The notes beneath the pieces were generated by a model. It was not told the origin of the DNA. It searched no databases and saw only the letters and a program-made list of their open reading frames with translations. The position numbers were made by a program, and so were the translations under genes. A DNA stretch of 64,000 nt from an uncultured Clostridiaceae bacterium. GTDB taxonomy: Bacteria; Bacillota; Clostridia; Ch29. The DNA lies in contig CAZDSH010000001.1 of NCBI GenBank assembly GCA_964508195.1, positions 67,263-131,262 of the forward strand, given 5' to 3'. Shown here piece after piece: positions 7,501-27,783 of this stretch; position 1 is the first letter of the stretch; every line of letters begins with the position of its first letter.

Positions 7501-8145
7501 GTAGGACTTCGCTATTTCACTTTGCCTAGCTAAGGGGTCTATTTGTTTTTGTAATTCCTCTATAATATCCCCTAACCTTAACAAATTTTCCTTCGTCTTT
7601 ATAAGTTTCCTTTCGGCGTCCTCTTTCCTAGTCTTATATTTTACTATCCCCGCCGCCTCTTCAAAAACTCTGCGCCTATCCTCGGCCCTTGAGCTTAATA
7701 TTTCGTCTATTCTACCCTGGCCAATTATCGAATAGCCCTCCTTGCCTATACCCGTATCCATAAACAACTCGTTTATATCCTTTAACCTGCAACCGGTTTT
7801 ATTGAGGTAGTATTCACTTTCACCGGACCGATATACTCTCCTTGTAACCGCTACCTCTGAATACTCTATAGGCAAAAAATTATCGTTGTTGTCAAGGATT
7901 ATGGAGACTTCGGCAAAACCTAGGGCCCTTCTGCCGTCGGTTCCGGAAAATATCACATCCTCCATCCTGTTACCCCTTAGTACTTTGGCGCTTTGTTCCC
8001 CCAGCACCCACCTTACTCCGTCGGCAATATTACTTTTACCGCTACCGTTAGGGCCAACTATTGCGCCGATACCCTGATCGAACTGTAGCTTAATTTTATC
8101 GGCGAAGGATTTAAAACCCTTTATTTCGATACTCTTAAGATACAT
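4576..8145 (-). CDS. smc: Chromosome partition protein SMC
   Basis: N-terminal Walker A (GPNGSGKSN), long coiled coils, a hinge, and a C-terminal LSGGEKALTAIALLFAI signature. The ATG at 8145 has a GGAGGT ribosome-binding site; the ORF-track start at 8199 would overlap the upstream gene. Confidence 0.9.
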   Translation of the reverse strand: MYLKSIEIKGFKSFADKIKLQFDQGIGAIVGPNGSGKSNIADGVRWVLGEQSAKVLRGNRMEDVIFSGTDGRRALGFAEVSIILDNNDNFLPIEYSEVAVTRRVYRSGESEYYLNKTGCRLKDINELFMDTGIGKEGYSIIGQGRIDEILSSRAEDRRRVFEEAAGIVKYKTRKEDAERKLIKTKENLLRLGDIIEELQKQIDPLARQSEIAKSYKAVKAELKGLELSMFVKAIEKLNRQKENILQRLESLRDSITDRTKAKTRLETDIAMLENRIMQTEEELKENQENMFKNLNLMEIKKGEIKVLKQRIQSEEDSINMHTRELESIEGDIAVAKGEKEGLEQSIRDMEAQLKDKNKIINSFQVNLDYLGFQVGKEQERAEAMQARIREGLNFISDKNNEKNNLRALREAAYRRKVKLLGEIDNIATQIEGLRDKDTNYRNEYDAITAELGEQTDIKKELQRKMRAHATERANLERKLKKVSSILNSDRSKLKLLMQMEDEHEGYSRSVKALMTACDKDNNFSRGIIGPVGGLIEVKDGLERAIEIALGYSLQSIITDTEGDAKRAIEHLKSNKLGRATFLPVNSIQPRYLSEKEKKALDMKGSIGSAPDLVGCSKKIRNIIANLLGRVIVVDSLDNGINIARVYGYAFKIVTMDGDVINAGGSITGGSNFRKETGLLQRKREIKSLKEAVKYNGDTVNKLETSLHSLCATERAVNHSLVKTTQRYHELELQCIKLEEMLESNNKELLEKGAVKSRLETEKMELEAEYYGMQKEMDSIDRIIKSKEIEVKKEQEIVQTLQKENSEMKRNRENIKQQITLRRVEVAKMEQRLENMEESFQRTLLSLGRLQSSLLNKQERIRENRANIKRIENEANSIDQNIKTLIIKTDNNNVEIARLGQLKTNYIQQLKEREQESKETDKKITELERLLHGDEMQLAKLDMELNSFHDRMWNDYEVTRIQALDYQHEIEDEKAARNRIKRLKSKLRSFGNINLNAIEEYKKVKDRFDFLTSQRKDLEDAKGALNQIINEMQSAMEEQFSKQFSIINDSFGRIFRELFGGGKAQVNLADDDNMLEAGINIIAQPPGKKLQHLSLLSGGEKALTAIALLFAILSVKPSPFCILDEIESALDDTNVQRFSAFLKKLSSDIQFVVITHRKGTIEIANNLYGVTMEEKGVSKLVSIKLEDMVS

Positions 8146-8173
8146 GGTACATACCTCCGGTCTATGGGCTGCA

Positions 8174-9250
8174 TTAGCGGACACCCTTTTCAATGACACG
8201 TAAATAATCCGTTTCTATTAGGTCCCTGTCACCCCTCAGGCGCAACACGTTCCCCTTAAGGGTTTCATCCGTCATCGTTTTAATGTATAAACCCGGGTAC
8301 ATTTCCCTTAGGGTTTTAATGTTTGCTTTGTTTATCCCCTGTAGCGTGGACAAGCATCGCGGGTTAACCGTAAGGATAAGCCCCCGGGATAGGTCCATTC
8401 CCCTTTGTTCAATTATCTTAACAATAACCTTTAACACGAGCTTCGCGTCCACCAGTTGCCTAAAAGACGGATGAAAAGGCCCTGCTATTACTTCCGCCCC
8501 CTCGCTTATCAAGTCGGTAGGTTGTAGGCCCATCCTTATAATTTTTATTCTTTCCTTAATAAATATTTCCGTAAGCCGGACACAGATATCTATCGCTCCA
8601 TGCAATGGTAATGGGGTATAAGCCCCGCTTTTATAAAGAGTTTCCATCTTCGTACCCCTTATAACTAATGCCGGGTATATTCTAACGAAATCCGGTTCCA
8701 GGGCACAGATTTCTGTAGCGGTATTAAGCTCTGTAATTTCGTAGGAGCCGGGTAATCCTATCATCATCTGCAATCCTAGCTTAAATCCATGATTTTTTAT
8801 CAACTTCGAGGATTTTACTACGTCCGCTGCGACATGTCCCCTTTGGCTTAGAGCGAGTACCTTATTGTCCATGGATTGTACACCAAGCTCTACCGTATCC
8901 ACACCAAAAGCCTTTAGATCATGGAGAATTTTTTTGTTGATATAATCCGGCCGCGTTGAAAGCCTTATACCGTCTATTAGGCCTGCCATCTTTGCGTTAT
9001 ATGCCTCATTTAAAAGTGCCCTTTGCATATCCATTGGAATCCCGGTAAAGCTACCGCCGAAAAAGGCTATTTCGATCCTTCTTGTTTTATCATGAAAAGT
9101 GGAGATGTATTCCTTTACCGTGGGTAAAATTTCTCCGGGGGTAACAGGCTTTTCTTGGCCCGTTATCTTGTTCTGACTACAAAAAACGCATGCATGGGGA
9201 CAACCTATATGGGGTACAAAGAAGGGTATTATATAGCGTTTATCTGTCAT
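8174..9250 (-). CDS. Radical SAM protein (TIGR01212-like family)
   Basis: CPHACVFCSQ is a CxxxCxxC-type cluster near the N-terminus. This family is commonly found between rnc and smc in Clostridia. Confidence 0.7.
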   Translation of the reverse strand: MTDKRYIIPFFVPHIGCPHACVFCSQNKITGQEKPVTPGEILPTVKEYISTFHDKTRRIEIAFFGGSFTGIPMDMQRALLNEAYNAKMAGLIDGIRLSTRPDYINKKILHDLKAFGVDTVELGVQSMDNKVLALSQRGHVAADVVKSSKLIKNHGFKLGLQMMIGLPGSYEITELNTATEICALEPDFVRIYPALVIRGTKMETLYKSGAYTPLPLHGAIDICVRLTEIFIKERIKIIRMGLQPTDLISEGAEVIAGPFHPSFRQLVDAKLVLKVIVKIIEQRGMDLSRGLILTVNPRCLSTLQGINKANIKTLREMYPGLYIKTMTDETLKGNVLRLRGDRDLIETDYLRVIEKGVR

Positions 9251-9252
9251 GT

Positions 9253-9972
9253 TTAATCCCTAAGCCTTTCCAAGGCGATTCCGGCGGCTTTTTGTTCCGC
9301 CTCCTTTTTACTTTTACCCGTACCTTCGCCGTAGAGTTTGTTATTAATATAAACCCCTACATGAAAGGTTTTATCGTGATCTGGCCCGTGCTGTGATATG
9401 ACTTTATATTCAACGATGTTATCCCCGGAGGCCTGAATATCTTCCTGAAGCATAGTTTTACTGTCTACGTTAAAATTATTTTCTATTAATTGGGATAACT
9501 TCCCTTCTATATACCGAATTATGAGGGTCTTAGCCCTGAAATACCCGCCGTCCAAATACACAGCCCCTATTACCGCTTCAAAGGCATCTGCGAGGACAGA
9601 GGGCCTTTCTCCGCCGCCACACATCTCCTCGCCCTTGCCCATCCGCAAAAAATTGCCCAACTTTAAATCGGCCCCATGGGTCCCTAGGGCCTGGCCCATT
9701 ACTAGGGATGCCCGCATCTTGGTCAGTACGCCCTCGGAACACCCCTCGAATTTATTGTACAGGTATTCACTGGCAACCATTTGCAGTACGGCATCCCCTA
9801 AAAATTCAAGCCTCTCATTGTACTCATCCCTCGCCATATTCTTTTCGTTAGCATAAGAACTATGGGTAAGGGCAGCATTTAACAGTTTAATATCCTTAAA
9901 TTTATACCCAAGCCTTTTTTGTAGCGTTTTAAGGCCGCGTAGTCTGGCATCATCCATAACAGAAACCGGCAC
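9253..9972 (-). CDS. rnc: Ribonuclease III
   Basis: RNase III signature ERLEFLGDAVL plus a C-terminal dsRBD. Position between fabF and smc. Confidence 0.9.
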   Translation of the reverse strand: MPVSVMDDARLRGLKTLQKRLGYKFKDIKLLNAALTHSSYANEKNMARDEYNERLEFLGDAVLQMVASEYLYNKFEGCSEGVLTKMRASLVMGQALGTHGADLKLGNFLRMGKGEEMCGGGERPSVLADAFEAVIGAVYLDGGYFRAKTLIIRYIEGKLSQLIENNFNVDSKTMLQEDIQASGDNIVEYKVISQHGPDHDKTFHVGVYINNKLYGEGTGKSKKEAEQKAAGIALERLRD

Positions 9973-14322: not shown

Positions 14323-15321
14323 TCAGCGGTCCCAATTAATCGCACAGGAGCCCCAAGTAAGCCCTGCCCCGAAACCAACTAGCACTATATTGTCGCCACC
14401 CTTAATAAGCCCCCTCGTTCGTGCCTCATCCAAGGCCACGGGTATAGAGGCCGAGGACATGTTGCCATATTTATCCAAGTTAACGAATATCCTGTCGTTA
14501 TCTATTTTAAGCCTTTTAACGGCGGATTCCACTATTCGCCTATTTGCCTGATGGGGCACAATAAGATCAATATCTTTGAGGGTTAAACCGGCCTTTTTCA
14601 AAACGCCGAGGGTGGCCCTTGGCATAATGTTTACGGCAAATTTATAAACTTCGCCGCCATCCATATGTATGAAATGTTTGCCGGATTTAACGGTATCCAC
14701 GGTGGCGGGCATTCTGGAGCCGCCGGCGGGGAGCGTTAGAACTTCTCCCTTCCAACCCTCTGCACCTAAAAGGGAGGCGAGTATACCCGTACCTTTTTCA
14801 ACTTTACTTAGCACCGCGGCCCCTGCACCATCACCGAACAGGACGCAGGTGTTTCTATCCTCCCAATTGCATATCTTAGTAAGGGTTTCAGCTCCTATTA
14901 CCAGTACAATTTTTGCATCACCGGTGGAAATAAACTTTTCCCCCAGGGAAAGGCCGTATATAAACCCCGTACATGCGGCCTGTACATCAAAGGCGAAGGC
15001 ATTTCTAGCACCAAGGTTAGATTGGACTATACAGGCCGTCGACGGGAAAGCCATGTCCGGTGTTGCTGTAGCTACAATTATCCCATCTATCTCTTTTTCA
15101 GAAACCTCTGCATCGTTCATTGCCTTTAACGCCGCCGCCGTGGCTAAATCCGAAGTAGCAGTATTGGAATCGCTTATCCTTCGTTCTGAAATACCCGTGC
15201 GGCTCTTTATCCATTCATCGCTGGTATCTACCATTTTCTCCAAATCAAAATTTGTTAATATTTTTGTCGGTAAATGCCTACCTGTTCCAATTATGCCAAC
15301 GGATTCTACAGTTCTAATCAT
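14323..15321 (-). CDS. fabH: 3-oxoacyl-ACP synthase III
   Basis: FabH Cys context (AACTGF) and a C-terminal GFGAGLTWG motif. The ATG at 15321 follows a GGAGGA ribosome-binding site; the ORF-track start at 15348 lies inside that site. Confidence 0.9.
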   Translation of the reverse strand: MIRTVESVGIIGTGRHLPTKILTNFDLEKMVDTSDEWIKSRTGISERRISDSNTATSDLATAAALKAMNDAEVSEKEIDGIIVATATPDMAFPSTACIVQSNLGARNAFAFDVQAACTGFIYGLSLGEKFISTGDAKIVLVIGAETLTKICNWEDRNTCVLFGDGAGAAVLSKVEKGTGILASLLGAEGWKGEVLTLPAGGSRMPATVDTVKSGKHFIHMDGGEVYKFAVNIMPRATLGVLKKAGLTLKDIDLIVPHQANRRIVESAVKRLKIDNDRIFVNLDKYGNMSSASIPVALDEARTRGLIKGGDNIVLVGFGAGLTWGSCAINWDR

Positions 15322-16315
15322 CGTTATCCTCCAATTGTATATGGGCACTTATTTTTGATTCTATACCTTCATCTATAAACTTTATTGCTTGCATTATTGC
15401 ATTTTCTATAGCAAGGGCATCGGAACTGCCATGGGCCTTTATACAGCCGCCTTTTATACCGAGGAAGGGTGCACCGCCGTACTGTTTATAATCGAGGGTA
15501 TCTTTAATCCTAGTGAGCCCGGGTTTTAACATAAGGGCCGCCATCTTTGTAAGGGTATTTGCGGTAAACTCCTCTTTAAGCTGTGCAAACAACGACATTG
15601 CCAGACCTTCAGTAAGTTTTAATATAACATTACCGACAAAACCGTCACAAACTAACACGTCGGCTACCCCGCTTAGTGCGTCCCGGGCTTCTATATTGCC
15701 TATAAAATTAAGGGAAGACTTTTTAAGCAGCCTGTAGGCATCCTTTGTAAGAATATTTCCTTTGCTCTTTTCAATACCAATATTTATAAGGGCAACCTTA
15801 GGGGATTCTATATCCATTATGCCCTCCATATAGGCAGAACCCATGAACCCGAACTGTAAAAGATTTATCGGCTTACACTCAGCGTTGGCCCCTGCATCTA
15901 TAAGCATAACGCCACCGCCCTCTGTAGTGGGCAATATCGGGGCTAAGGCCGGGCGGTCTATACCTTTGATCCTACCTACGCGGAGCAAAGCCCCTGCCAG
16001 AAGGGCTCCCGTGTTACCCGCGGAAATAAAAGCATCGGCCTGCCCGTTCCTAACCTTTTGTAGGCCTACTACCATTGAGGAATCTTTTTTCTTTTTAATC
16101 GCCTCAACCGGCGCATCGTCCCCTTGGATTACTTCGTCTGTGTGTTGTATTTCTATTCTTTGGGTTTTATATCCTTTAAGAGCATCCTCAATATCCTCGC
16201 CCTTACCGAGGAGCAAAAGTTTTAGCCTTTCATTCCTATGCAGTGCCCCTACGCATCCTTTAACGATCTCCAAGGGTGCATTATCGCCACCCATAGCATC
16301 GACGGCTATTATCAT
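15314..16315 (-). CDS. plsX: Phosphate acyltransferase PlsX
   Basis: MIIAVDAMGGDNAP is the canonical PlsX N-terminus. Sits between fapR and fabH. Confidence 0.9.
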   Translation of the reverse strand: MIIAVDAMGGDNAPLEIVKGCVGALHRNERLKLLLLGKGEDIEDALKGYKTQRIEIQHTDEVIQGDDAPVEAIKKKKDSSMVVGLQKVRNGQADAFISAGNTGALLAGALLRVGRIKGIDRPALAPILPTTEGGGVMLIDAGANAECKPINLLQFGFMGSAYMEGIMDIESPKVALINIGIEKSKGNILTKDAYRLLKKSSLNFIGNIEARDALSGVADVLVCDGFVGNVILKLTEGLAMSLFAQLKEEFTANTLTKMAALMLKPGLTRIKDTLDYKQYGGAPFLGIKGGCIKAHGSSDALAIENAIMQAIKFIDEGIESKISAHIQLEDNDD

Positions 16316-16333
16316 TATAATATCCCTCCTACC

Positions 16334-16900
16334 CTACGCCTCTAGGGCTACTAGAATAAATTTACCCCGAAACATTTCCTGCATTTTGTGCTTAATTTTT
16401 ACCCATACAAAAAATTTGTTACCCCTTCTTCTTGTAACCTTTGCCTGGGCGATGAGTTTTTGGCCCGAACGTACCGGATGCTTATATTTTATGTTCGCCA
16501 CTCCTATAAGGGCGACATTTGCATCTATTACCGCTATTGCAAGGGATTCCGCTTGGGCATATATGAACTGTCCGCGGACTATATTAGTCTTTTCGAAGGC
16601 CATTGAACTATCGGTCTCCAACATAGATATGCCCCGTTCGCCGAGGTCCACGTCTAATAGCTCACCGACGATTTCTTTGCCGGATATAGTTCTGACCTTT
16701 GCGTATGTACCCTCCGCCACATTTTTTATCCTTTCACGGAGCTCCGGTATTCCAAGCTCCATCCTATCAAGTCTGATGGTATGTATGCTGACCTTAAAAT
16801 ACTCGCTTAACTCTTCGTCGGTTAAAAAGGGATCCTTTTTAATCTCTTCAGACAGGGCCCTTTGCCTTTCCTTTTTATTCTTGCCCCTATACCTTCCCAT
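16334..16900 (-). CDS. fapR: Fatty acid and phospholipid biosynthesis regulator FapR
   Basis: 188-aa protein with an N-terminal HTH and a C-terminal hotdog thioesterase-like fold. First gene of the fapR-plsX-fab operon. Confidence 0.85.
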
Positions 16901-17132
16901 AAAAAACCCCTCCCTCTCCTATACGGTCCAACAGTACATTGATGGCCTTTATCCGGGGCTATCATTATGACTTGGGCATATCACCTGATACTAACATTAA
17001 GTATACATTATGTTTTTTATTAAATCAATGAAAATTTCCATAAAAAATCAAGGGACCCGCCATAGCCCTTGTTCCATTTGGGCTTAGGCGAACCCCTTTA
17101 TGCAGATAACTTCGTGTACATAACACAGAATC

Positions 17133-19214
17133 TTAACTACATATATATTCCCCGGCATCTATATATCCCCCTAGGAGGTTAAGGTATTCTTCCCCCTCTA
17201 GGGACAATCTGGTGCCCTTAGGTCCCCTGTGGATCACCACTAAACCGTATTGCGCCAATATACCTAACCTGTTTCGTATCATCTGTTCCGTCATCTTTAT
17301 CCGACCTTTACAACGCTGGGCGATACCCTTTCTGCTAAGGTAAACATCCCCCCTATCCTTTGCGTTTTTAAGTACCCCGAGGATCGTAGCCAACTCCTCC
17401 AGGGGCATTTCCCCCTCTATGGCCCTTATCACTTTCTCCCGGCGCATAAACCTATCCTTCGGCGCAAAGGGTAAATCCTTACTCCTTACAGGACCGTCGC
17501 CTACGATATGGTATAGATATTCGATTACGTTTTCCAATTCACGAATATTACCCGGCCAATCGTATTCCATAAATTCTTCCATAGCTTCCTCGCTTATTTC
17601 CATCGCCTCCCCCTTCGGAAACTTTTCGAGCATCTTTTCTATAAGTAGTGGTATATCTTCTTTATGTTCCCTTAGAGGCGGTATCCGTATAGGCAGCACC
17701 TTTAACCTATAGAACAGATCCTCCCTGAACTCTCCGGCACTGACAAGTTCTTCGAGGTTTTTGTTTGTAGCCGCGATGATCCTTACGTCGATGGGAATAA
17801 TTTTAGTGCCGCCGATGCGCAATACCTCTTTTTCCTGTAAGACCCTTAATAACCTTGCCTGTATTTTTAGGGAAGCATCCCCTATTTCATCGAGGAAAAT
17901 GGTTCCCTTATGGGCCTGCTCGAATAACCCCGCGTGTCCGCCCTTCCTCGCCCCGGTAAAGGCGCCTTCCTCGTAGCCAAAGAGTTCGCTTTCTAGAAGG
18001 TTTTCCGGGAGCGCTGCAAAACTCACCGCTACGAAGGGCCCGTATTGCTTGCCCGAGGCCTTGTGTATAGCATGGGCGAAAAGTTCCTTACCGATGCCGC
18101 TTTCGCCGAGTAAGAGCAAAGTGGAATTGCTCCTTGCCAATTTTCGCGCGATCTCCTTCGTTTCGACTATTTGTTTACTCTTGCCCACTATATTTGAAAA
18201 CCCATATTTAGAGGTATGGCCCCTTTTCATCAGATTCGCCCTTACTATATTCTCCATTTCAATTATTTCTGATAAGTCCTTAAATGTTATAATAACCCCG
18301 TTATTGACATCGTTTTTTATAATAGGCATCATCGTAAGGAGTATTTTTTTGCCCATTATTTCGTGTACTTTTCTATAAAGGCCGAAATTTTTACCCAAAA
18401 GGGCCTTCGCTTCAAAGTCCAATATATCGTCTAAATTTATTTCACCGACGTTTTTTTCGCCCTTTTCCGAAAACAACTTATTTGCATTCTCATTGCTAAA
18501 CATAACATTGCCGTCGCTGTCTATACCCACTATTCCGTCGTTTATGACGTTGAGTATTGTATGTAATTGTTTCATTATATTATCATTCGTTTCAAGGGCC
18601 TTTACCACTTTTTTGCCGGAATAAACGAAATCCTGTAAAAACCTGGCGGACAATAGGTTTGTCCTTTCATCGAGTATATCGAGCTTTATCATTATTTCGG
18701 TAATAGTAGTAAGATCTATTTTGCTAAAGCTTAAATCTATTATATTTTCCACATATTCGGGGACCATGTGGATCTCCCCCGTAGTTATTGCGTAATCCGC
18801 ATGTTGGGTAAACCTCTGCCCCGGGTAATAGGGATACATCCTTATATGGTTTATACCCAGCTCCTCAAGGAGGGATATGGAGTTTTCCGCAAGGTATTTA
18901 TTCACATCGACAAATAGCACGTCCTCCCCCTGGGGTATGCGGAGCACGTCTTCGAGTTTTGAATGGTTCAAAGATCTCCGGGCTACGAGTATTTCCGCCC
19001 GGGGGTCTATATATTTTAACGCTGTCTCTTTGAGGTATTCATGACATATAAGTACGAGGGTGTCGTAGATCTTTTCCTCGATACCCTCTAGGATAGAGTA
19101 TCCCTTTATCGCAACCTCGGGTCCTAAAAGATTAGTCAACTGGTTGATCACATTTTCTTTATGCTTTTCAGAACGGGTTATTATGGATAATCCAAATCGT
19201 GTAACATCTTGCAT
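17133..19214 (-). CDS. Sigma-54-dependent transcriptional activator (enhancer-binding protein): unknown N-terminal domain, PAS, AAA+, and an atypical C-terminal domain
   Basis: Central AAA+ sigma-54 interaction domain with Walker A (GESGIGKE), the GAFTGA motif (EGAFTGA) and a Walker B/arginine-finger region. PAS-like segment around residues 210-320 of the protein. The first roughly 200 residues are an unrecognised domain. The C-terminal roughly 110 residues lack the Fis-type HTH. Confidence 0.85.
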
Positions 19215-19471
19215 TTACTGTTTCACCTCCTTCCTTCTATATTATACCAGAGAGTTAACCGGTTTTAAAGGGTTTTAAAAAAATAACCTTTAAGACCCAA
19301 TAAAGCGTTCAGCCCCGTGGAAATTAACTCCATGAACCTTTGGTTTATTATACCCTATTTTACTTATACGACCTATTCTACGTATCCCTGTATGCCTAGG
19401 CCGTGTTTCCATAATGAATGTTTATAATCCATCCCCTTGAATGTTTCTCAAAAGTATCCCTATACATTAAT

Positions 19472-19487
19472 TGGCACGAGTATTGCA
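19472..19487 (+). promoter_or_regulatory. Sigma-54 (-24/-12) promoter TGGCACG-N4-TTGCA upstream of kamA
   Basis: TTGGCACGAGTATTGCA matches the RpoN consensus TGGCACG-N4-TTGCW exactly. It is divergent from, and adjacent to, the enhancer-binding protein gene. Confidence 0.75.
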
Positions 19488-19735
19488 CATTTACTAAGTT
19501 GCTGATCAGCAAACCTAAATAAGGTAAGGGATTCGTTAACGAAGGTTTAACGTTTTTATCGCTTTTTAAAAAAACTTTCCGTATTCTTAGGTCGCGGTAT
19601 AGCTTTGTTTAACCGATGCCCGGGGAGCCCGTTATTTCGGACTTTAACCTTTAATAATACGGAAATGAGCATAACATTGTAAATGCGTTATATATATAAA
19701 TAGTAGAATTTTTATCTAGATTAGGAGGTTAAAAG

Positions 19736-20998
19736 ATGGAAAATTCAAAATTAAGCTCAAGGGAAATATCCCTTCAAAGGGCGGATGTTTTAAAGAGTCG
19801 TATAGATCCTTATCTTGAAGCAAAGTTAGACATTCACTCCGGCTTGGATCAAAAAGATGAAATAAGGGCAAGGCAGGCTAGGATTAAAGAGATTATGGGC
19901 GCTAGCGAAGATCAGTGGAACGACTGGAATTGGCAAATAGATAACCGGGTAACGGATTCCGATACCCTTGCCAAATTTCTTGAACTAACTACTAAACAAA
20001 AGAAGGATATTGATGCTGTAGCAGCGAAGTTTAGATGGGCTATTTCCCCATACTTTCTATCTTTGATAGAACCTAGCGGGAATCATTATGAGCATCCTAT
20101 ATACTTGCAGTCCGTTCCCACGGGTCTGGAGCTCGTAGAAGGTATCGGTAGCGCAGATCCCATGGCTGAAGAGTTTACGAACCCTGCACCCTGCATTACC
20201 CGCCGGTATCCCGACAGATTGATTATAAACGTTACGAACCAGTGCGGAATGTACTGTCGCCACTGTCAAAGGAGAAGGAATATCGGAGAAGTGGATGCAC
20301 CACAACCTAAGGAGAAGCTGCAGGCGGCCGTAGATTATATTAGAAACACGCCGGAGATCAGGGACGTACTTATAACCGGCGGCGATCCTTTCACCTTCTC
20401 CGACGAGATGCTAGATTGGCTCCTTGGCGAACTTGATAGTATTCCCCACCTTGATTTTAAAAGAATTGGCACAAGGATGCCCGTTACATTACCCCAAAGG
20501 GTAACGCCAGAACTTTGTGATATGCTCAAAACACATCATCCTTTATTCATAAACTTACAATTTAACAGTCCTATGGAAGTATCCGAGGATTCCTTAAAGG
20601 CCTGCGAAATGTTAGCCGATGCAGGGATACCCTTAGGGAACCAGGCAGTGCTTCTAAGGGGCGTAAACGATCATCCCTTTGTGATGAAAAAGCTATGCCA
20701 AGAGCTGTTAAAGGCACGGGTAAGGCCGTACTATATATTCCACGCCAAGGGTGTAGTGGGGACTCTACACTTTAGGACTAGCGTAGATATAGGCATAGAA
20801 ATTATGGAACATCTAAGGGGTTATACCTCGGGGCTTGCTATTCCGACGTTCATCGTAAATGCCCCAGAGGGTAAGGGCAAAACGCCTATGCTACCCGAAT
20901 ACGTTATCTCCCATGGCAGGGATACCATCACTATAAGGACCTGGGAAGGCGAAATAATAGAGTATCCAAACAAAGATGCCGATGTAGAGTACGAATAA
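19736..20998 (+). CDS. kamA: L-lysine 2,3-aminomutase (radical SAM, PLP-dependent)
   Basis: 420-aa protein with the KamA-type CxxxCxxC motif (NQCGMYCRHCQRRR) and a full-length C-terminal domain. EpmB-type enzymes are shorter. Ribosome-binding site AGGAGGT. Confidence 0.85.
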   Translation: MENSKLSSREISLQRADVLKSRIDPYLEAKLDIHSGLDQKDEIRARQARIKEIMGASEDQWNDWNWQIDNRVTDSDTLAKFLELTTKQKKDIDAVAAKFRWAISPYFLSLIEPSGNHYEHPIYLQSVPTGLELVEGIGSADPMAEEFTNPAPCITRRYPDRLIINVTNQCGMYCRHCQRRRNIGEVDAPQPKEKLQAAVDYIRNTPEIRDVLITGGDPFTFSDEMLDWLLGELDSIPHLDFKRIGTRMPVTLPQRVTPELCDMLKTHHPLFINLQFNSPMEVSEDSLKACEMLADAGIPLGNQAVLLRGVNDHPFVMKKLCQELLKARVRPYYIFHAKGVVGTLHFRTSVDIGIEIMEHLRGYTSGLAIPTFIVNAPEGKGKTPMLPEYVISHGRDTITIRTWEGEIIEYPNKDADVEYE

Positions 20999-21102
20999 AA
21001 TTATCAGGATAAACATACATCAATATGCTCCAGGTACAGTCTAAATAAAAACTATTTTTGGTAATATATATATACCAAAAAATAAATTAAGGGGGTATAT
21101 TC

Positions 21103-22140
21103 ATGAGAAAAAGACTAGCATTGTTGTTAGTGCTCCTATTTGCGTTTTCTACTATACTGGTAGGATGCACTACACCAGCAGACACCAATGGGGAAGATGA
21201 TGCACCGGCGCCGGTCCAAAAGCAACAGATCTCCATATTAACCGGTTCTACCGGCGGTACGTACTTCGCTTTAGGCGGGGCCATGGCCAATACTTGGAAT
21301 GAATACCTAGATAATGTACAGGTGACGGGCCAACCCAGCGGCGCATCCGTGGAGAACATTAACCGTCTCCATGCCGGCGAGGTAGAGCTTGGTATGTCTA
21401 TGAACAACATTGCCGACGATGCCTGGAACGGGGTAGGCGCCTTCCCGGGGGAACAACGGGGTTTTAGGACTATAGGCGTTATTTATCCCGAGGTTTATCA
21501 GGGCGTAGCTATTAAAGGGTCTGGCATTAAAACCCTCGAGGATGTAAAGGGTAAAAGAGTAGCCGTAGGCCCTGTTGGGAGCGGTACAGTAGTGATGACC
21601 GAGACTGTGTTCAATGAAGCGGGCATGTCCTTTGATGATGTAAAAGCAAACTATGACGGCTTTGGCGATGCTGCCAGCAAGATGAAGGATGGACACTTAG
21701 ATGCGGCCTTCAACGTATTAGCAGTTCCCGCCGCAGCGATACTGGATATACAATCGGATCGTGAAATAGAAATAATCGAAATAGGCGATGATCTATACGA
21801 AAAAGTTAACGCTAAGTTCCCCTATTTCAGCCAATATGTGATACCCGCTGGAACCTATGGGAATGAAGAGGACAAATTAACGGTAAACTGTGTTGCTGCA
21901 TTGTACGCGTCCCCGGATATGTCCGAGGATTTGGCCTATGACATAACGAAGGTATGGTTTGAGAAAACTGCCCATACCGCGGCAGCCCACGGTGCAGCCC
22001 AGTGGCTTGCAGACGAACTCGCCGCAGGGAATAAGGACGTCATGCTCGATGGCATAACGACGCCGCTACATGTCGGGGCCTATAAGTATTTCAAAGACAT
22101 AGGCGTAGACGTCCCGGATATGATTAAACCTATTGATTAA
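21103..22140 (+). CDS. TAXI-family TRAP transporter solute-binding lipoprotein
   Basis: Lipoprotein signal peptide with lipobox (LVGCTT). ILTGSTGGTYFALGGAMANTWN is the TAXI (TRAP-associated extracytoplasmic immunogenic) signature. Confidence 0.8.
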   Translation: MRKRLALLLVLLFAFSTILVGCTTPADTNGEDDAPAPVQKQQISILTGSTGGTYFALGGAMANTWNEYLDNVQVTGQPSGASVENINRLHAGEVELGMSMNNIADDAWNGVGAFPGEQRGFRTIGVIYPEVYQGVAIKGSGIKTLEDVKGKRVAVGPVGSGTVVMTETVFNEAGMSFDDVKANYDGFGDAASKMKDGHLDAAFNVLAVPAAAILDIQSDREIEIIEIGDDLYEKVNAKFPYFSQYVIPAGTYGNEEDKLTVNCVAALYASPDMSEDLAYDITKVWFEKTAHTAAAHGAAQWLADELAAGNKDVMLDGITTPLHVGAYKYFKDIGVDVPDMIKPID

Positions 22141-22293
22141 TCAATAAGGGATGAAGGCCGGGAACCGTACAGTCCCCGGCCTTCATAATTAATATAATAT
22201 TACATAGCCTTAAATGTAAAAGTAACGCCTAATTTATTTTTTTGGTTTTCATAGGAGATTCCTCTAGGTAATTTTAACATAGGAGGTAGGAAT

Positions 22294-24291
22294 ATGGCGG
22301 AAAGGCAGAAAGATGACAGCATTATATTAGACGAAATTAAACTGGATGAAGAAAAATCCGAAGAGATTTTAGCTAAATACGATCGGGAATTCGATTTCAG
22401 AAGGCTTAGCGGGCCCTTAGAGAAATTCGTTTTTTTATGTGCGGTTGCTTGGTCCTTGGCCCAACTTTACACTGCGGCCTTCGGCGTTTTCCCTTCAACA
22501 TTACAAAGGGCACCCCACGTAGGTATCGCCCTTGTACTTATTTATATATTGTACCCGGCTAAAAGGGGCAGCAAAAACAATAAAGTACCGTGGTACGATT
22601 TTGTATTTGCCTTCCTAGGTGTTGTAGTCTCTTCGTACCATGTGATTTATTATAAAGAGCTAGTTTGGCGTGCAGGGGTTTACACTACAACGGATATGGT
22701 AATAAGCGTTATTGCCGTCTTATTGATAATAGAAGCAACTAGAAGAATGGCTGGACCGGTCATCGTTTCCCTAGCATCCTTTTTCCTGCTCTATGCGTAT
22801 TTCGGCGATTATTTTCCATCCTTTATGGCCCATCACGGCCTAACTTTAAAGAGAATAGTAATATTCCAATGGATAAGCACCGAGGGTATTTTAGGTATAC
22901 CCATTCAAGTATCATCGACCTTTATATTCCTTTTTATGCTTTTTGCGACCTTTTTAAAGAAAAGCGGCATTGGGGATTGGATGACGGAAATAGCCGTAGG
23001 ATTAACGGGCGGCGCTATCGGCGGGCCTGCTAAGGCCGCGGTAATAGCAAGCGCAGCCCAGGGTACGATCTCCGGTAGCTCTGTTGCCAATACTGTAGGT
23101 ACTGGCTCCGTTACGATTCCCCTTATGAAGAGCATCGGCTACCGTAAAGAGTTCGCCGGTGCCGTTGAAGCAGCGGCCTCTACAGGCGGCCAGCTTATGC
23201 CCCCTATAATGGGCGCTGCAGCATTTATTATGGTGGAGTTTCTTAATATCCCCTACAGAACGATCGCTATTTCAGCGGCGATACCCGCAGCCCTTTATTT
23301 TACGGGGATATTTATAACGGTGCATTTAGAGGCAAAAAAGGCAGGCCTTTTAGGTATACCTAAAGAACGACTGCCGGATTGGAAACAGCTCGTTAAGAAA
23401 AAATGGTTCCTTGCCACGCCGATAGCGGGTATTGTCTACCTCTTGGTCAAGGGATACACTCCGATGCTGGCTGCTTTTTATGCCATTATACTGTGTATCG
23501 CTGCGTCAATGATATTGAAAGAAACCCGTATGTCAATAATGGATATTATTTCGGCCCTAGAGGAGGGGGCCAAGTCCGCCCTCCCGGTAGTTGTAGCCTG
23601 TGCCACTGCGGGTATAATAGTAGGCATAGTTACGTTGACGGGCCTAGGCATGAAGATGTCCGGCGGCCTTGTAAGATTAGCCGGAGGCAATGTCTACCTA
23701 ACTATGCTCTTTACGATGATAGGTTCGCTGATACTAGGTATGGGCGTTCCCACTACGGCAAACTATATCATCCAAGCAACGGTTTCGGCGCCGGCGTTAA
23801 TGGTCCTAGGGGTTCCGCCCTTAGCGGCCCATTTGTTTGTGTTCTATTTCGGTATAGTGGCGGATATTACTCCCCCTGTAGCCCTGGCAGCCTTCGCCGG
23901 TTCGGGGATAGCCCAATCGGACCCTTTAAAGACTGGATTCGAGGCCTTTAAACTGGGTTTTGCCGCATATTTAGTGCCCTATATATTTGCCCTATCCCCT
24001 ATCCTTGTATTGATAAGACCGGAAGGGCTTTCAACATGGGGCTTTGCCTTTAGCGTAATCCTCGCAATCGGTACTGCACTTATAGGTATGCTATGTATAG
24101 GCGGTTCGACTACTAATTATTTTGTAACCAATGACAAATGGTATGAACGTGTCCTACTCCTTATTGCAGGGGTTACTTTGATACACCCGAGCTTCCATAC
24201 AGACCTGTTCGGAGCCGTTGTGTTAGCTGGGGTTTGGTTCCTGCAAACAAGCCGGGTAAAAAAAAGGGCGGCAGCGGAAAAAAGCATATAA
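22294..24291 (+). CDS. TAXI-type TRAP transporter fused permease subunit (fused 4TM/12TM DctQM-like)
   Basis: 665-aa polytopic membrane protein of the TRAP fused-permease family, immediately downstream of the TAXI solute-binding gene. Confidence 0.8.
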   Translation: MAERQKDDSIILDEIKLDEEKSEEILAKYDREFDFRRLSGPLEKFVFLCAVAWSLAQLYTAAFGVFPSTLQRAPHVGIALVLIYILYPAKRGSKNNKVPWYDFVFAFLGVVVSSYHVIYYKELVWRAGVYTTTDMVISVIAVLLIIEATRRMAGPVIVSLASFFLLYAYFGDYFPSFMAHHGLTLKRIVIFQWISTEGILGIPIQVSSTFIFLFMLFATFLKKSGIGDWMTEIAVGLTGGAIGGPAKAAVIASAAQGTISGSSVANTVGTGSVTIPLMKSIGYRKEFAGAVEAAASTGGQLMPPIMGAAAFIMVEFLNIPYRTIAISAAIPAALYFTGIFITVHLEAKKAGLLGIPKERLPDWKQLVKKKWFLATPIAGIVYLLVKGYTPMLAAFYAIILCIAASMILKETRMSIMDIISALEEGAKSALPVVVACATAGIIVGIVTLTGLGMKMSGGLVRLAGGNVYLTMLFTMIGSLILGMGVPTTANYIIQATVSAPALMVLGVPPLAAHLFVFYFGIVADITPPVALAAFAGSGIAQSDPLKTGFEAFKLGFAAYLVPYIFALSPILVLIRPEGLSTWGFAFSVILAIGTALIGMLCIGGSTTNYFVTNDKWYERVLLLIAGVTLIHPSFHTDLFGAVVLAGVWFLQTSRVKKRAAAEKSI

Positions 24292-24333
24292 ACGAGTATA
24301 TAGCTTTGGATTAAATACAAAACCATTAGATAT

Positions 24334-24368
24334 AAAAATAGTAACGGTTAAACCGTTACTATTTTTAT
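24334..24368. terminator. Bidirectional rho-independent terminator between the TRAP permease and rpmF
   Basis: Perfect hairpin AGTAACGG-TTAAA-CCGTTACT flanked by AAAAAT on one side and ATTTTTAT on the other. Confidence 0.7.
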
Positions 24369-24370
24369 GT

Positions 24371-24547
24371 TCACTCAGTTTTTAGCACTTCCTTGCCCTT
24401 GTAATAACCGCATGTGCGGCACATCCTATGGGGCATCATAGCTTCATGGCATTGCGGGCATACGATCAACCCGGGCTTTTTTATCTTCCATTGGGCTAAC
24501 CTATGATTTCTCCTCGATTTTGACGTTTTCCTTTTTGGTACCGCCAT
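24371..24547 (-). CDS. rpmF: 50S ribosomal protein L32
   Basis: Hand translation gives MAVPKRKTSKSRRNHRLAQWKIKKPGLIVCPQCHEAMMPHRMCRTCGYYKGKEVLKTE. It is below the 60-aa cutoff of the ORF track. Conserved position downstream of yceD. Confidence 0.85.
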   Translation of the reverse strand: MAVPKRKTSKSRRNHRLAQWKIKKPGLIVCPQCHEAMMPHRMCRTCGYYKGKEVLKTE

Positions 24548-24574
24548 AATAACACCTCCTCGAGCCTACTACTG

Positions 24575-25072
24575 CTACTCCAGCAACTTTTTAAGCTTTT
24601 CCATCCTTGGATCGATCCCCTCATGCCTACAGTCGCATTGCGTCGTGTTCCTATCGCCACCACAAATGGGACAAAGACCTTTACAATCCTCGCTACACAA
24701 TACCTTTATAGGTAGTTCCAATAGAATACTTTCTTTTACCGGTACATTAAGGTCTATTCTGTCACCACGGATGGGCAAAACATCCTCACCTTCCCCGGTT
24801 TCGCTATACATTTGGCTAAAGGCCGTACTAAGGGGATACTTAACAGTACGAAGGCACCTTGAACATTGGAGGATAACCTCTGTTTGCACCTCACCTCGGA
24901 TCAAAAACACATTATCATTTCTTTCGATACTGCCCTTTACATTTATAGGGCTACTAAAACTTATGTTTTCACCGCCGCTGTCAATACATCCGATGTTCTC
25001 CTTAAGTTCAAAGGACACACGACCACTGTCATCACTTTTTAAGTTTTTAATATACATTATCATCGTTAGCAC
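24575..25072 (-). CDS. yceD: YceD/DUF177 family protein (large ribosomal subunit accumulation)
   Basis: C-terminal Cys cluster (CPICGGDRN...CDC) and the conserved yceD-rpmF arrangement. Confidence 0.8.
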   Translation of the reverse strand: MLTMIMYIKNLKSDDSGRVSFELKENIGCIDSGGENISFSSPINVKGSIERNDNVFLIRGEVQTEVILQCSRCLRTVKYPLSTAFSQMYSETGEGEDVLPIRGDRIDLNVPVKESILLELPIKVLCSEDCKGLCPICGGDRNTTQCDCRHEGIDPRMEKLKKLLE

Positions 25073-25132
25073 TCTCCATAGCCAACAGATTTTATTATAT
25101 AAAGTGGCCTTTTATTTGTCAAGATCGCGCCA

Positions 25133-26326
25133 TTACCCTATTTCCCTAATTGTATCCCTGGCTATCATCAGCTCTTCGTTCGTGGGAATAACTATCGCTT
25201 TTACCGCACAGTCATGCTTACTTATGATTGCCTCCTCAGCCCTAACATTGTTGGCCTTTTTATCCAGTTCCAGGCCGAGGTATTCTAGGCCGGTGCACAA
25301 TTTCTCCCTCATCGTAATAGAGTTCTCTCCTAGACCCGCTGTAAACACTATAACGTCTACCCCGTTCATAACCGCTGCATAGGAGCCTATGAACTTTTTA
25401 ACCTTGTATGCAAAGACGTCAATAGCCAAGGCCGCCCTTTTGTTGCCCTTTGCCGCGGCCTCCTCTAGGTCACGGAAATCACTGCTCACGCCAGATATGC
25501 CTAAAACGCCGGAGCTTTTATTTAATATATTATTAACTTCTTCTATTGTCAACTGTTCCTTTTCCATAAGGAATGCGATTATCGCAGGATCAATGCTCCC
25601 ACATCGGGTTCCCATGGCAAGCCCCTCTAAAGGCGTAAATCCCATACTGGTTTCTACGGATTTACCGTTCTTTACCGCCGTTATGCTGGCACCGTTCCCT
25701 AAATGGCATGTTATTATCCTAAGATCCTCCAGGGGTTTACCGAGGATCTCAGCAGCCCTTTCAGCTACGTACTTATGGGAAGTCCCATGGAAACCGTATT
25801 TACGCACACCGTATTTTTTATAGTATTCGTAGGGAATGGGATAAATATATGCATAATCCGGAATAGTATGGTGATAAGCCGTATCAAAGGTACCGGCCAT
25901 CGGTATCCCGGGCATGAGCTGTCGGCAGGCCTCTATGCCCATAATATTAGGCGGGTTATGTAGGGGTGCCAAATCCGCACATTCCCTTAGCGTATCCATA
26001 ACCTCCTGCGTAATCCTAACGGAACCGGAGAATTTTTCCCCGCCATGAACAACTCTATGGCCTACAGCGGATATATCGCTCGTGTCTTTTATTACTCCAT
26101 CTTTTTTGTCCGTTAATACATCGGTTATGACTTTAAGTGCAGCCTTATGATCGGCCATCGCAGTTTCGATTATTATTTCATCTTTATCGGCGGCTTGGTG
26201 CTTTAATCTTGACCCTTCTATGCCGATTCTTTCTGCTAATCCACGGGCCATCACGCTTTCATGTTCCATGTCCAGCAATTGATATTTTACAGAAGAACTG
26301 CCGCAGTTCACTACTAAGACTTTCAT
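25133..26326 (-). CDS. ackA: Acetate kinase
   Basis: [17 protein letters not shown] is the canonical AckA N-terminus; 397 aa. Confidence 0.95.
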
Positions 26327-26514
26327 TTTTTCTCCTCCCTATAAGTTCAATGATTGACTCTATATAGTTTTCTTCACAACTTACAAATATCCTGCAAAAT
26401 ACATTAAAATAATGTGTATAATGAAGTGGGGGATACATTAAATAACAAGACTTACGTTAAAACCTTAGTTTAAGCCATGGTTTACGGCTATTAATAATAT
26501 CCTTAAGGGGAGAT

Positions 26515-27783
26515 GTGAATACTTTGAAAGTGTTAGGCATAATAGCTGAATACAATCCATTCCATAACGGCCATTTATATCATTTAAGAAGATCCATTGA
26601 GATGACCGGCGCAACCCATACCGTAGCCGTCATGAGCGGTAATTTTGTCCAAAGGGGCGAACCGGCGATCATAAACAAGTGGGCCCGGGCGGAGATGGCA
26701 ATAAAATCCGGCGTTGACCTCGTAATAGAGCTGCCCACAGTATACGCCTGCAGGAGCGCCGAGGGCTTTGCATTAGGCGCATTAAGTATACTTAACGGCC
26801 TCGGTACCATAGATACCCTTTGTTTTGGCAGTGAAGCCGGTAACCTTAGGGAGCTTGAATACGTAGCCCATATACTATACGATGAGCCCGGGGATTATAG
26901 GGTGTATTTACGAGATTACCTTTCCCGGGGGTACAGTTATCCTTCGGCTAGGTCCGCAGCCTTGGAAAGATATTTAGACCCCCGGGCTAAAAACCTTATA
27001 GCTTTATTAAATTCGCCGAACAACATATTGGCGATAGAATACCTAAAGGCTATTAAGGCGCTACGTAGCAATGTTTACCCCTATACGATAAAACGATACG
27101 CCGCGGGATACCATTCACGATCCCTTCGTTCAAATATCGCCGGCGCAACAGCAATTCGAAGGGAAATTATAAAAAGAGGCACCATTATAGGAACGATAAA
27201 AAAAACTATGCCCGCTGTTTGCCTAACCGTATTAAACAGAGAATTATCTATGGGGCGGGGCCCTTTATACCACGACCTATTTAGTATGCCATGTATAGCC
27301 CTTATAAGAAGGCTTGGCGCAAAAGCCTTAACACAGTTCCCTGAAGTCGTTGAGGGCCTTGAAAACAGAATATATTCTGCAGCGATGAGGGAGGTAACCC
27401 TTTCCGGTATATTAGATCGGATAAAGACTAAACGGTACACCCATACACGCCTTAGGAGGATTGTAACTTATATACTCCTTGATATAACCGAGGACCTTAT
27501 AAGTTGCCTTAGGGCACATAAAAACCCCGTCTATGCAAGGGTTCTAGCATTAAACGAAAAGGGCGGGGATATTCTAAGCAAGGCCAAAACTACATCGAGA
27601 ATACCTATTATAACTAAGTTCGCTAACCATGGTTTCGCCGAAGATGATCCTTTATTGAAAATATTACAAAAAGAAATTCTGGCAACAGATCTATATGTAC
27701 TAGGCTATGCTAACGACAGATATTCCTCCGCCGGCCAAGATTTTGTAACCAGCCCCCTTTTTTACCCGGGACCAAACCAATAG
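26515..27783 (+). CDS. tmcAL: tRNA(Met) cytidine acetate ligase TmcAL (YlbM/UPF0348 nucleotidyltransferase)
   Basis: N-terminal HxGH-like nucleotidyltransferase motif (AEYNPFHNGHLYHL), about 420 aa, in a ylbM-like neighbourhood. Confidence 0.75.
   Translation: MNTLKVLGIIAEYNPFHNGHLYHLRRSIEMTGATHTVAVMSGNFVQRGEPAIINKWARAEMAIKSGVDLVIELPTVYACRSAEGFALGALSILNGLGTIDTLCFGSEAGNLRELEYVAHILYDEPGDYRVYLRDYLSRGYSYPSARSAALERYLDPRAKNLIALLNSPNNILAIEYLKAIKALRSNVYPYTIKRYAAGYHSRSLRSNIAGATAIRREIIKRGTIIGTIKKTMPAVCLTVLNRELSMGRGPLYHDLFSMPCIALIRRLGAKALTQFPEVVEGLENRIYSAAMREVTLSGILDRIKTKRYTHTRLRRIVTYILLDITEDLISCLRAHKNPVYARVLALNEKGGDILSKAKTTSRIPIITKFANHGFAEDDPLLKILQKEILATDLYVLGYANDRYSSAGQDFVTSPLFYPGPNQ

Follow-up and report, generated by a model that had tools for sequence, protein, structure and literature searches.

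A glutamate 2,3-aminomutase-type gene in a TAXI-TRAP operon of an uncultured Clostridiaceae bacterium: a possible route for beta-glutamate salvage

The DNA analysed here is a stretch of 64,000 nucleotides (the window) from an uncultured Clostridiaceae bacterium (assembly GCA_964508195.1, contig CAZDSH010000001.1, positions 67,263 to 131,262 of the forward strand). The question it raises is what a full-length member of the KamA (lysine 2,3-aminomutase) family, encoded at 19736-20998, is doing among genes that offer beta-lysine no consumer. A first, sequence-only reading took the gene for a genuine lysine 2,3-aminomutase standing alone. The answer given here is that it encodes a glutamate 2,3-aminomutase-type enzyme (Eam) and heads an operon with a TAXI-family binding protein and a TRAP permease, an identification of enzyme and operon which we make from sequence and hold with high confidence. 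Eam is a radical-SAM (S-adenosylmethionine) isomerase dependent on pyridoxal phosphate (PLP), and shifts the amino group between C2 and C3 of glutamate, thus interconverting L-glutamate and beta-glutamate (3-aminoglutarate). A tentative proposal for what the operon does, salvage of beta-glutamate, is built on this identification.

The open reading frame (ORF) runs from ATG to TAA on the plus strand and occupies exactly 19736-20998, that is 420 codons; the opposite strand contains many stops. A ribosome-binding site AGGAGG is present at 19723-19728, 7 nt ahead of the ATG at 19736. The product matches the Pfam families Radical_SAM and LAM_C, scores 321 bits with the KamA-family subfamily model TIGR00238 (cutoff 199) and has the radical-SAM motif CxxxCxxC as C170-x3-C174-x2-C177 (CGMYCRHC). 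It aligns through residues 55-411 with KamA of C. subterminale (PDB 2A5H), with 50% identity and E = 3e-124. The sequence-only reading was right in seeing a full-length, 420-residue KamA-family protein with this motif, and also in setting it apart from EpmB by size: EpmB proteins have about 320-340 amino acids (aa), and the EpmB model TIGR03821 gives 200.7 bits against a cutoff of 369.3.

Curated models, substrate-site residues and a tree all bear on which amino acid the enzyme would use. The only curated equivalog passed is TIGR04368, glutamate 2,3-aminomutase, with 654.2 bits against a cutoff of 650 and a match from protein residue 8 to 412 and profile position 2 to 404 of 404. The AblA/lysine equivalog TIGR03820 (469.2, cutoff 525.4) and the arginine 2,3-aminomutase model TIGR04468 (347.3, cutoff 600) stay below their cutoffs. 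In KamA, Asp293 and Asp330 hold the epsilon-ammonium group of lysine. According to the alignment the window protein has Lys338 (in YIFHAKGVVG) and Asn375 (in TFIVNAP) at these positions, and the catalytic residues are kept: C170/C174/C177, R179 and K382 correspond to KamA C125/C129/C132, R134, which binds the alpha-carboxylate, and K337, which binds PLP. Lysine and asparagine at the two positions (K/N) are reportedly the mark by which Ruzicka and Frey (2007) recognised the Eam of C. difficile; no accessible paper stating this K/N signature was found.

Among the 80 genome loci there are 78 full-length homologues, and every one has the K/N pair, as have 26 of 26 clade members of a second alignment. 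The 78 homologues, which show 50-88% identity, come from Clostridia, Halanaerobiales, Syntrophomonadaceae and some Bacilli; NCBI names many of the close ones glutamate 2,3-aminomutase, and JGI pipelines often label homologues lysine 2,3-aminomutase. A neighbour-joining tree, built without the characterised Eam sequences of C. difficile and Methanococcus, splits the K/N clade from four lysine enzymes with Asp at both positions (2A5H, Fusobacterium KamA and the AblA of Peptoclostridium and of Bacillus velezensis) at 100/100 bootstrap, with the window protein nested well inside the K/N clade. Both the phylogeny and the inspection of the positions of Asp293 and Asp330 had been proposed in the sequence-only reading, and both gave a clear answer.

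The claim of a genuine lysine 2,3-aminomutase, making beta-lysine as an end product or precursor, is rejected on the residue test, the AblA model score below its cutoff and the separate clade, and we regard it as very improbable. In its favour are that the protein is a full-length member of the family, that half of its residues (50%) match KamA of C. subterminale, and that JGI so labels some homologues. Besides the grounds just given, a lysine in the distal site would be expected to repel the epsilon-ammonium group of the substrate, and the two true ablA genes compared (Peptoclostridium and Bacillus velezensis) have an adjacent ablB, which the window gene lacks. Lysine, arginine and EpmB assignments are all ruled out by the hidden Markov model (HMM) cutoffs and the residues at the D293/D330 positions. 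The fallback of the same reading, that the enzyme acts on a different substrate and might belong to the glutamate subfamily, is the part which the TIGR04368 score and the K/N pair bear out.

Compared with the C. difficile Eam (TIGR04368), the window protein shows the KamA-family fold, the CxxxCxxC motif, the Arg for the alpha-carboxylate, the Lys for PLP and a length of about 420 aa, and scores above the equivalog cutoff; unlike in the known accounts of Eam, the gene lies in a TAXI-TRAP operon under sigma-54 control. KamA of lysine fermentation (2A5H) has the same cofactor-binding residues and the same type of reaction, but differs in the distal Asp pair, in Cys268, which is His in the window protein, and in its partners: neither kamDE, kdd, kce or kal nor ablB was found in the 64-kb window. 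Cys268 is a zinc ligand of KamA; the His in the window protein is residue 313, and most of the K/N clade has Asp or Asn there. The C-terminal Cys cluster, as in Peptoclostridium AblA, is absent from the window protein and from the K/N clade members inspected, and the zinc site of KamA is probably absent from these members too.

The gene does not stand alone. The operon consists of the following elements:

19736-20998, plus strand: eam, glutamate 2,3-aminomutase-type radical-SAM/PLP enzyme, 420 aa; key residues C170/C174/C177, R179, K338, N375, K382
21103-22140, plus strand: TAXI-family TRAP solute-binding protein, 345 aa; TIGR02122 274.9 (cutoff 84.35), Pfam NMT1_3
22294-24291, plus strand: fused DctQ-DctM TRAP permease, 665 aa; TIGR02123 TRAP_fused 734.6 (cutoff 320.65), Pfam DctM and DUF3394
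24329-24371, no strand assigned: bidirectional terminator, perfect 20-bp hairpin between A and U runs, z = -6.2

The three genes follow each other on the same strand, and the first terminator is the one at 24329-24371, which serves as the end both of the operon and of rpmF, a convergent gene (24371-24547, minus strand). The binding protein has a signal peptide ending in the lipobox LVGC, as read from the translation, and is thus lipoprotein-like. A TAXI subunit and a fused DctQM permease are encoded together, which marks the transporter as a TAXI-type TRAP system. With co-directional transport genes, no terminator before 24329, a sigma-54 promoter and a divergent activator gene, the description of the gene as stand-alone has to be given up; that it lacks partners holds for enzymes, and misses the importer and a dedicated regulator. 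To connect the enzyme with the adjacent TRAP system, as the sequence-only reading had suggested, was a good idea. Export by that system, which it also considered, is unlikely since TRAP transporters are binding-protein-dependent importers.

The ligand of the transporter is approached through the two TAXI proteins VcGluP of V. cholerae (with its permease VcGluQM) and TtGluBP of T. thermophilus, which resemble the window system in having a TAXI protein with a fused or large permease. In VcGluP the contacts to L-glutamate, established by structure and mutagenesis, are Y45, S75, Q93, E125, Y200 and M201; Q93, a ligand of the alpha-amino group, costs 990-fold in affinity when changed to Ala and Y45 costs 213-fold, and the site of TtGluBP is nearly identical (PMC11574862). 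When mapped on 8S4J (VcGluP) and 1US4 (TtGluBP), the pocket of the window protein keeps Y45, S75, E125 and G156; Q93 is replaced by Met, Y200 by Asn, M201 by Val, G203 by Ala and V44 by Thr. Given its residues at 93, 200 and 201, the protein is not classed here with the L-glutamate-specific binders of the VcGluP/TtGluBP type.

Both L-glutamate and beta-glutamate are C5 dicarboxylates of identical skeleton, distinguished only by where the amino group sits. Retained carboxylate contacts and E125 together with an altered alpha-amino ligand are what would be expected of a pocket for beta-glutamate, and the ligand is probably an amino dicarboxylate. Met at position 93 (M93) and a small residue at position 200 are common to every eam-adjacent binding protein. 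An M93 exclusive to eam-linked proteins was ruled out: among the 120 closest homologues, down to 42% identity, position 93 is Met in 118 and Val in 2. Unlike VcGluP and TtGluBP, this M93 pocket class of 120 has no member with a known ligand or a solved structure.

In three loci (locus numbers, L, are our own labels) a second TAXI-DUF1850-permease set, with the L-glutamate-type Q93, follows in tandem after the eam-linked M93 set (L097:9881-13059, L098:9881-13059 and L008:14915-18340). In L008 an Asp/Glu-type racemase lies between the two TAXI sets, near to the cysteate racemase CuyB (183 bits, cutoff 190); the binding-protein gene of this locus is broken by 100 Ns, and loci derived from metagenome-assembled genomes may carry assembly errors. 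The M93- and Q93-type systems coexist and are presumably non-redundant.

The control region and the remaining signals of the operon are these:

17133-19214, minus strand: divergent sigma-54 enhancer-binding protein, 693 aa; Pfam Sigma54_activat 2.7e-66, AAA_lid_14, weak PAS
19261-19298, no strand assigned: enhancer-like upstream activating sequence (UAS) block with half-sites GGTT 19261-64, GGTT 19271-74, AACC 19285-88 and ACC 19296-98
19472-19487, plus strand: sigma-54 (-24/-12) promoter TGGCAC-N5-TTGCA (TGGCACGAGTATTGCA), the sole TGGCAY-N5-TTGCW match in 64 kb
19501-19510, plus strand: perfect palindrome GCTGATCAGC, about at the transcription start, some 13 nt 3' of the -12 element
19512-19735, plus strand: 5' leader, a large part of which is an insertion according to the intergenic alignment
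22151-22186, plus strand: intercistronic 12-bp GC-rich hairpin without U-tract, following the binding-protein gene; -24.8 kcal/mol, z = -4.8

By chance 0.11 matches to the sigma-54 promoter would be expected in the 64-kb window. In each of the 9 loci with the activator the promoter precedes the aminomutase gene, and it is missing from the loci without the activator; no rpoN gene was seen among the window ORFs examined. From its N-terminus onwards the activator is made up of an alpha/beta domain without family assignment (about residues 8-177), a PAS domain (about 216-330), the AAA+ sigma-54 interaction domain with GAFTGA (342-509), an AAA lid and a C-terminal DNA-binding region. Orthologues, likewise divergent from eam, are encoded in L001-L006, L009, L012 and L079. 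In being a PAS and AAA+ activator divergent from a -24/-12 promoter of an amino-acid-related operon it is like PrdR, RocR and AcoR; unlike them it has 215 N-terminal residues that match no family. PrdR is the nearest curated family, and PrdR itself is ruled out by a score of 384 bits, far under the cutoff of 795. The N-terminal region gave no Pfam match even at E <= 5, and a homologue search returned 8 truncated proteins only. The AlphaFold2 model was of moderate quality (predicted local distance difference test 65.6 overall, about 80 for residues 8-177), and Foldseek recognised in it nothing beyond the PAS part and the N-terminal region of TyrR. In Firmicutes, PAS-bearing sigma-54 activators such as RocR, AcoR, BkdR and PrdR typically turn on substrate-induced catabolic operons.

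In the nine aligned orthologous intergenic regions the columns of the UAS block are invariant and the flanks diverge; the block, which adjoins the activator gene and precedes the promoter by some 175-210 nt, is probably the site, or enhancer, where the activator binds. The palindrome GCTGATCAGC, present once in the window, is likewise invariant in 9 of 9 orthologous leaders with diverging flanks, and may be an operator for some regulator. The leader is longer than that of most relatives by about 130 nt or more; the extra sequence is strain-specific and unconserved, with a predicted fold of -43 kcal/mol, and no repeat copies of it occur in the window or in the fetched loci besides an identical Logan contig. 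No riboswitch was found in the leader, the region 15000-27000 giving no Rfam match at E <= 1. The hairpin at 22151-22186 is probably an mRNA stabiliser or a partial attenuator that sets the ratio of binding protein to permease.

How the gene is wired elsewhere was seen by clustering all ORFs of the 80 homologous loci and annotating the recurrent neighbours. No conserved beta-glutamate consumer was found in the 80 loci. TAXI/TRAP genes apart, no family is shared between lineages, and the neighbours are mainly of the housekeeping kind; in the majority of lineages eam is inserted singly among such genes. In 12 of 30 stand-alone eam loci scanned, a cyclic di-AMP (c-di-AMP) riboswitch (RF00379) lies directly upstream on the same strand with 87-110 bits (gathering score 38), at these places:

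L030:4778-4915, L031:9764-9896, L035:9670-9801, L036:2898-3028, L037:2253-2393, L039:9741-9872
L042:9522-9659, L043:9528-9665, L045:157-295, L050:1700-1837, L051:9777-9911, L056:3055-3246

This riboswitch class controls genes for osmolyte and potassium homeostasis, and its presence implies osmoregulated synthesis of beta-glutamate in Syntrophomonadaceae, Dehalobacterium and other Bacillota. It was found at none of the 7 activator-less TAXI-linked modules, nor at the module in the window. The combination of eam, TAXI protein and permease recurs in the clade of the window and in L021 (Thermoanaerobacteraceae), L022 (Vulcanibacillus), L091/92 and L097/98 (Clostridiaceae BRH_c20a); the TAXI proteins of these latter loci are only 40-62% identical, their chromosomal contexts differ and are often beside tRNA genes, and the eam-TAXI modules lie on two branches of the enzyme tree. 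The family thus has two wirings, one stand-alone and often under the c-di-AMP riboswitch, the other in a TAXI-TRAP operon, which in the clade of the window has the sigma-54 activator.

Several of the contexts of eam concern translation, secretion or competence: trmD-[eam]-rplS in L013-L016, hpf-[eam]-secA-prfB in L023-L027, L032 and L058, eam-tex-amidohydrolase-tsaE-tsaB in L017-L020 and L034, and comEA-comEB-eam...comEC in L022. In several lineages eam is the sole metabolic gene in such conserved operons, and no obvious functional link was seen. In at least 6 loci eam has as its neighbour a gene for a large protein (about 1420 aa) of the "CoA-enzyme activase" type, which combines two BcrAD/BadFG ATPase domains with DUF2229; the gene lies upstream in L017, L019, L020 and L034 and downstream in L026 and L029 (e.g. 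L020:1389-5675). The protein could be an ATP-driven electron donor to the radical-SAM cluster.

Binding proteins of the M93 type also occur away from eam. In L087/L088 (3059-5220, 9172-10143) the M93 TAXI system has as neighbours an RpiR regulator and a class-III aminotransferase, together with thioesterases; a BKACE there resembles Kce (313 bits, cutoff 382), and a dehydrogenase resembles Ord (279 bits, cutoff 400). Judged from its annotation this gene set is a toolkit for breaking down non-alpha amino acids, and it looks like an uncharacterised cluster for degradation of beta- or gamma-amino acids. Members of the BKACE family act on beta-ketoglutarate, which is the transamination product of beta-glutamate (PMC4922564). 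Other M93 contexts are a class-III aminotransferase in L099, a nitrilase-superfamily enzyme with a NicX-like protein in L093 and a two-component system of GlnL/YcbB type in L095; others were uninformative. Directly after the eam module of L010 follows a kor-like 2-oxoacid:ferredoxin oxidoreductase.

The model we favour hypothesizes that the activator senses a small-molecule signal and turns the operon on. The TAXI-TRAP system would then bring in beta-glutamate, which methanogens and bacteria with stand-alone eam produce as an osmolyte and release, and Eam would run from beta to alpha, so that L-glutamate enters central metabolism as a source of carbon, nitrogen and energy. The module would thus scavenge an unusual isomer of glutamate, and a further partner enzyme would be unneeded. 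Several observations favour this reading. The pocket is not of the L-glutamate type. The operon is controlled as substrate-induced catabolic operons are in Firmicutes, and not by a riboswitch as the osmolyte genes are. Sister transporters lie beside enzymes of beta-amino-acid catabolism, and a kor or a racemase gene is added at one locus each. Finally, a transporter and a lone isomerase suffice as a pathway only where they yield a central metabolite. Import with subsequent isomerisation to L-glutamate is a reading to which we lean without giving it quite an even chance. That the operon would be the first recognisable beta-glutamate salvage system, with an M93 TAXI-TRAP importer, a catabolic Eam and a beta-glutamate-sensing activator, and with the corollary that the M93 subfamily binds beta-amino carboxylates, is a proposal we make with more reserve, as possible and somewhat doubtful.

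Several points weigh against this model. Substrate, ligand, inducer and direction of flux are all argued from sequence and gene context. The margin over the TIGR04368 cutoff is only 4 bits, the tree has no characterised Eam among its members, and the rule that K/N equals glutamate comes from one paper and a curated HMM. Several M93 members occur in contexts unrelated to beta-amino acids, so the pocket alone does not specify beta-glutamate, and the supporting contexts in L008 and L010 are one locus each. Synthesis of beta-glutamate as an osmoprotectant is the better-supported role of the family, and there are known operons by which a single compatible solute is both made and taken up. It should also be noted that the equilibrium of the related lysine enzyme favours the beta isomer; if the same equilibrium holds for glutamate, the reaction from beta to alpha needs a downstream metabolic pull.

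Osmolyte synthesis is a serious competitor, in two versions. The first, which we consider unlikely, postulates synthesis and recapture: Eam forms beta-glutamate from endogenous glutamate, and TAXI-TRAP imports or recaptures it, so that both serve one pool of compatible solute, like ectoine synthesis and TeaABC. It is compatible with a pocket of non-L-glutamate type and with the osmolyte association of the family, and TRAP transporters do serve in the uptake of compatible solutes, as TeaABC does. Control by a sigma-54 activator, rather than by a c-di-AMP or Na+ riboswitch, is at variance with it, and so are the catabolic context of sister binding proteins and the racemase and kor genes beside some modules.

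In a second version, rather unlikely in our judgement, the operon is an osmolyte factory: L-glutamate, or glutamine, comes in through TAXI-TRAP and is turned by Eam into metabolically inert beta-glutamate, which is stored as a compatible solute. Beta-glutamate is an established osmolyte, serving methanogens as an osmoprotectant (PMC1224877), eam is found among osmoprotectant genes under Na+ riboswitches (PMC9337991) and is reported to be stress-induced in Moorella (PMC7835215). The c-di-AMP riboswitches at stand-alone homologues are frequent, the sequence-closest characterised TAXI binders take L-glutamate, and glutamate uptake in Vibrio is tied to osmoadaptation. The model has to accommodate a pocket without Q93 and Y200, Q93-type TAXI systems in tandem with the eam-linked type, TAXI-linked modules without the osmotic-type riboswitches of the stand-alone genes, and cells which make their own glutamate, where the need for a dedicated importer is not obvious. 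The methanogen glutamate 2,3-aminomutase and the AblA/AblB pathway (Tunckanat et al. 2022; Pfluger et al. 2003) represent the same enzyme family and chemistry. Unlike in these pathways of osmolyte synthesis, the window gene has neither a riboswitch nor an acetyltransferase partner, and has an importer and an activator of substrate-induced type instead, which suggests that its physiological use differs from osmolyte synthesis in methanogens.

It would also be conceivable that another acidic or polar amino acid, e.g. aspartate, 2-aminoadipate, glutamine or a D-isomer, is both substrate and ligand. The marginal equivalog score, the tree without characterised Eam and the diverse contexts of the M93 TAXI subfamily leave room for this; with 50-88% identity across a clade which NCBI names Eam, and K/N invariant in the 78 homologues and 26 clade members, we find it improbable. 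The weakest proposal, beta-glutamate for modification of a macromolecule by analogy with EpmB and EF-P, could draw on the eam genes inside translation-related operons (trmD-[eam]-rplS, hpf-[eam]-secA-prfB, tex/tsaE/tsaB) and is hardly credible, as the 80 loci contain no EpmA-like ligase or other conserved partner, the contexts vary by lineage as for a single gene dropped into conserved regions, and riboswitch control points to osmoregulation. A role in secondary metabolism of the IdnL4/IdnL3 type, with a beta-glutamate decarboxylase and an adenylation enzyme (PMC11284099), was rejected for the window, which has no such genes.

The published work we could consult touches these proposals from the side. 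A reconstruction of sigma-54 regulons in Clostridiales does not have an eam-TAXI-TRAP regulon (PMC6615313), and a survey from 2025 mentions only a COG1509 "lysine 2,3-aminomutase" as sigma-54-associated, in Bacilli (PMC12316311). In the literature available we found none on eam coupled to an M93 TAXI-TRAP system and a PAS-containing sigma-54 activator, and none on uptake or catabolism of beta-glutamate/3-aminoglutarate. The original characterisation of the C. difficile Eam is said to have left its physiological role open.

The four genes of the module, activator, eam, TAXI protein and permease, sit between fapR-plsX-fab and rpmF-yceD-ackA, with these neighbours placed as follows:

16334-16900: fapR
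24371-24547, minus strand: rpmF
24575-25072: yceD/DUF177-like, CxxC-rich
25133-26326: ackA

The activator-less modules of L007, L008, L010, L091 and L097 adjoin tRNA genes, and the insertion between fapR and rpmF here, with tRNA-side versions elsewhere, hints that the module moves as a unit. No consumer of a beta-amino acid was found among the scanned ORFs of the 12-31 kb region or the other non-obvious ORFs of the window. The scanned ORFs are housekeeping genes or belong to the transporter and regulator module, the remainder fits the usual conserved core gene order, and the remark in the sequence-only reading that no enzyme consuming beta-lysine lies nearby agrees with this. A second radical-SAM protein (358 aa, Radical_SAM and Radical_SAM_C) is encoded at 8174-9250 on the minus strand, between an smc-sized ORF (4576-8199) and an ORF at 9253-9972; it has an ordinary housekeeping look and is unrelated to the module.

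The puzzle of a lysine aminomutase without partners thus dissolves, as the enzyme class is already known and the naming at NCBI is already correct. The question that remains is a modest one, namely the purpose of the bacterial glutamate 2,3-aminomutase, for which the split in wiring gives testable predictions. If the salvage model is true, the donors of beta-glutamate would be osmolyte-producing neighbours, i.e. methanogens, Syntrophomonas and other bacteria with riboswitch-controlled eam. The ligands of M93 proteins would have two exits, one by the aminomutase and one by an aminotransferase or dehydrogenase with BKACE cleavage. The model would then provide a transporter for an archaeal and bacterial osmolyte, a catabolic role for a radical-SAM aminomutase, and for a widespread, ligand-orphan TAXI subfamily a class of ligands, the beta-amino (non-alpha-amino) carboxylates. 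Enzyme and transporter pairs of this kind could serve in engineered beta-glutamate pathways (bioRxiv 10.1101/2025.11.21.689712). The model would also bear on how compatible solutes are cross-fed among the organisms of anaerobic digesters and sediments, where most of the homologues come from.

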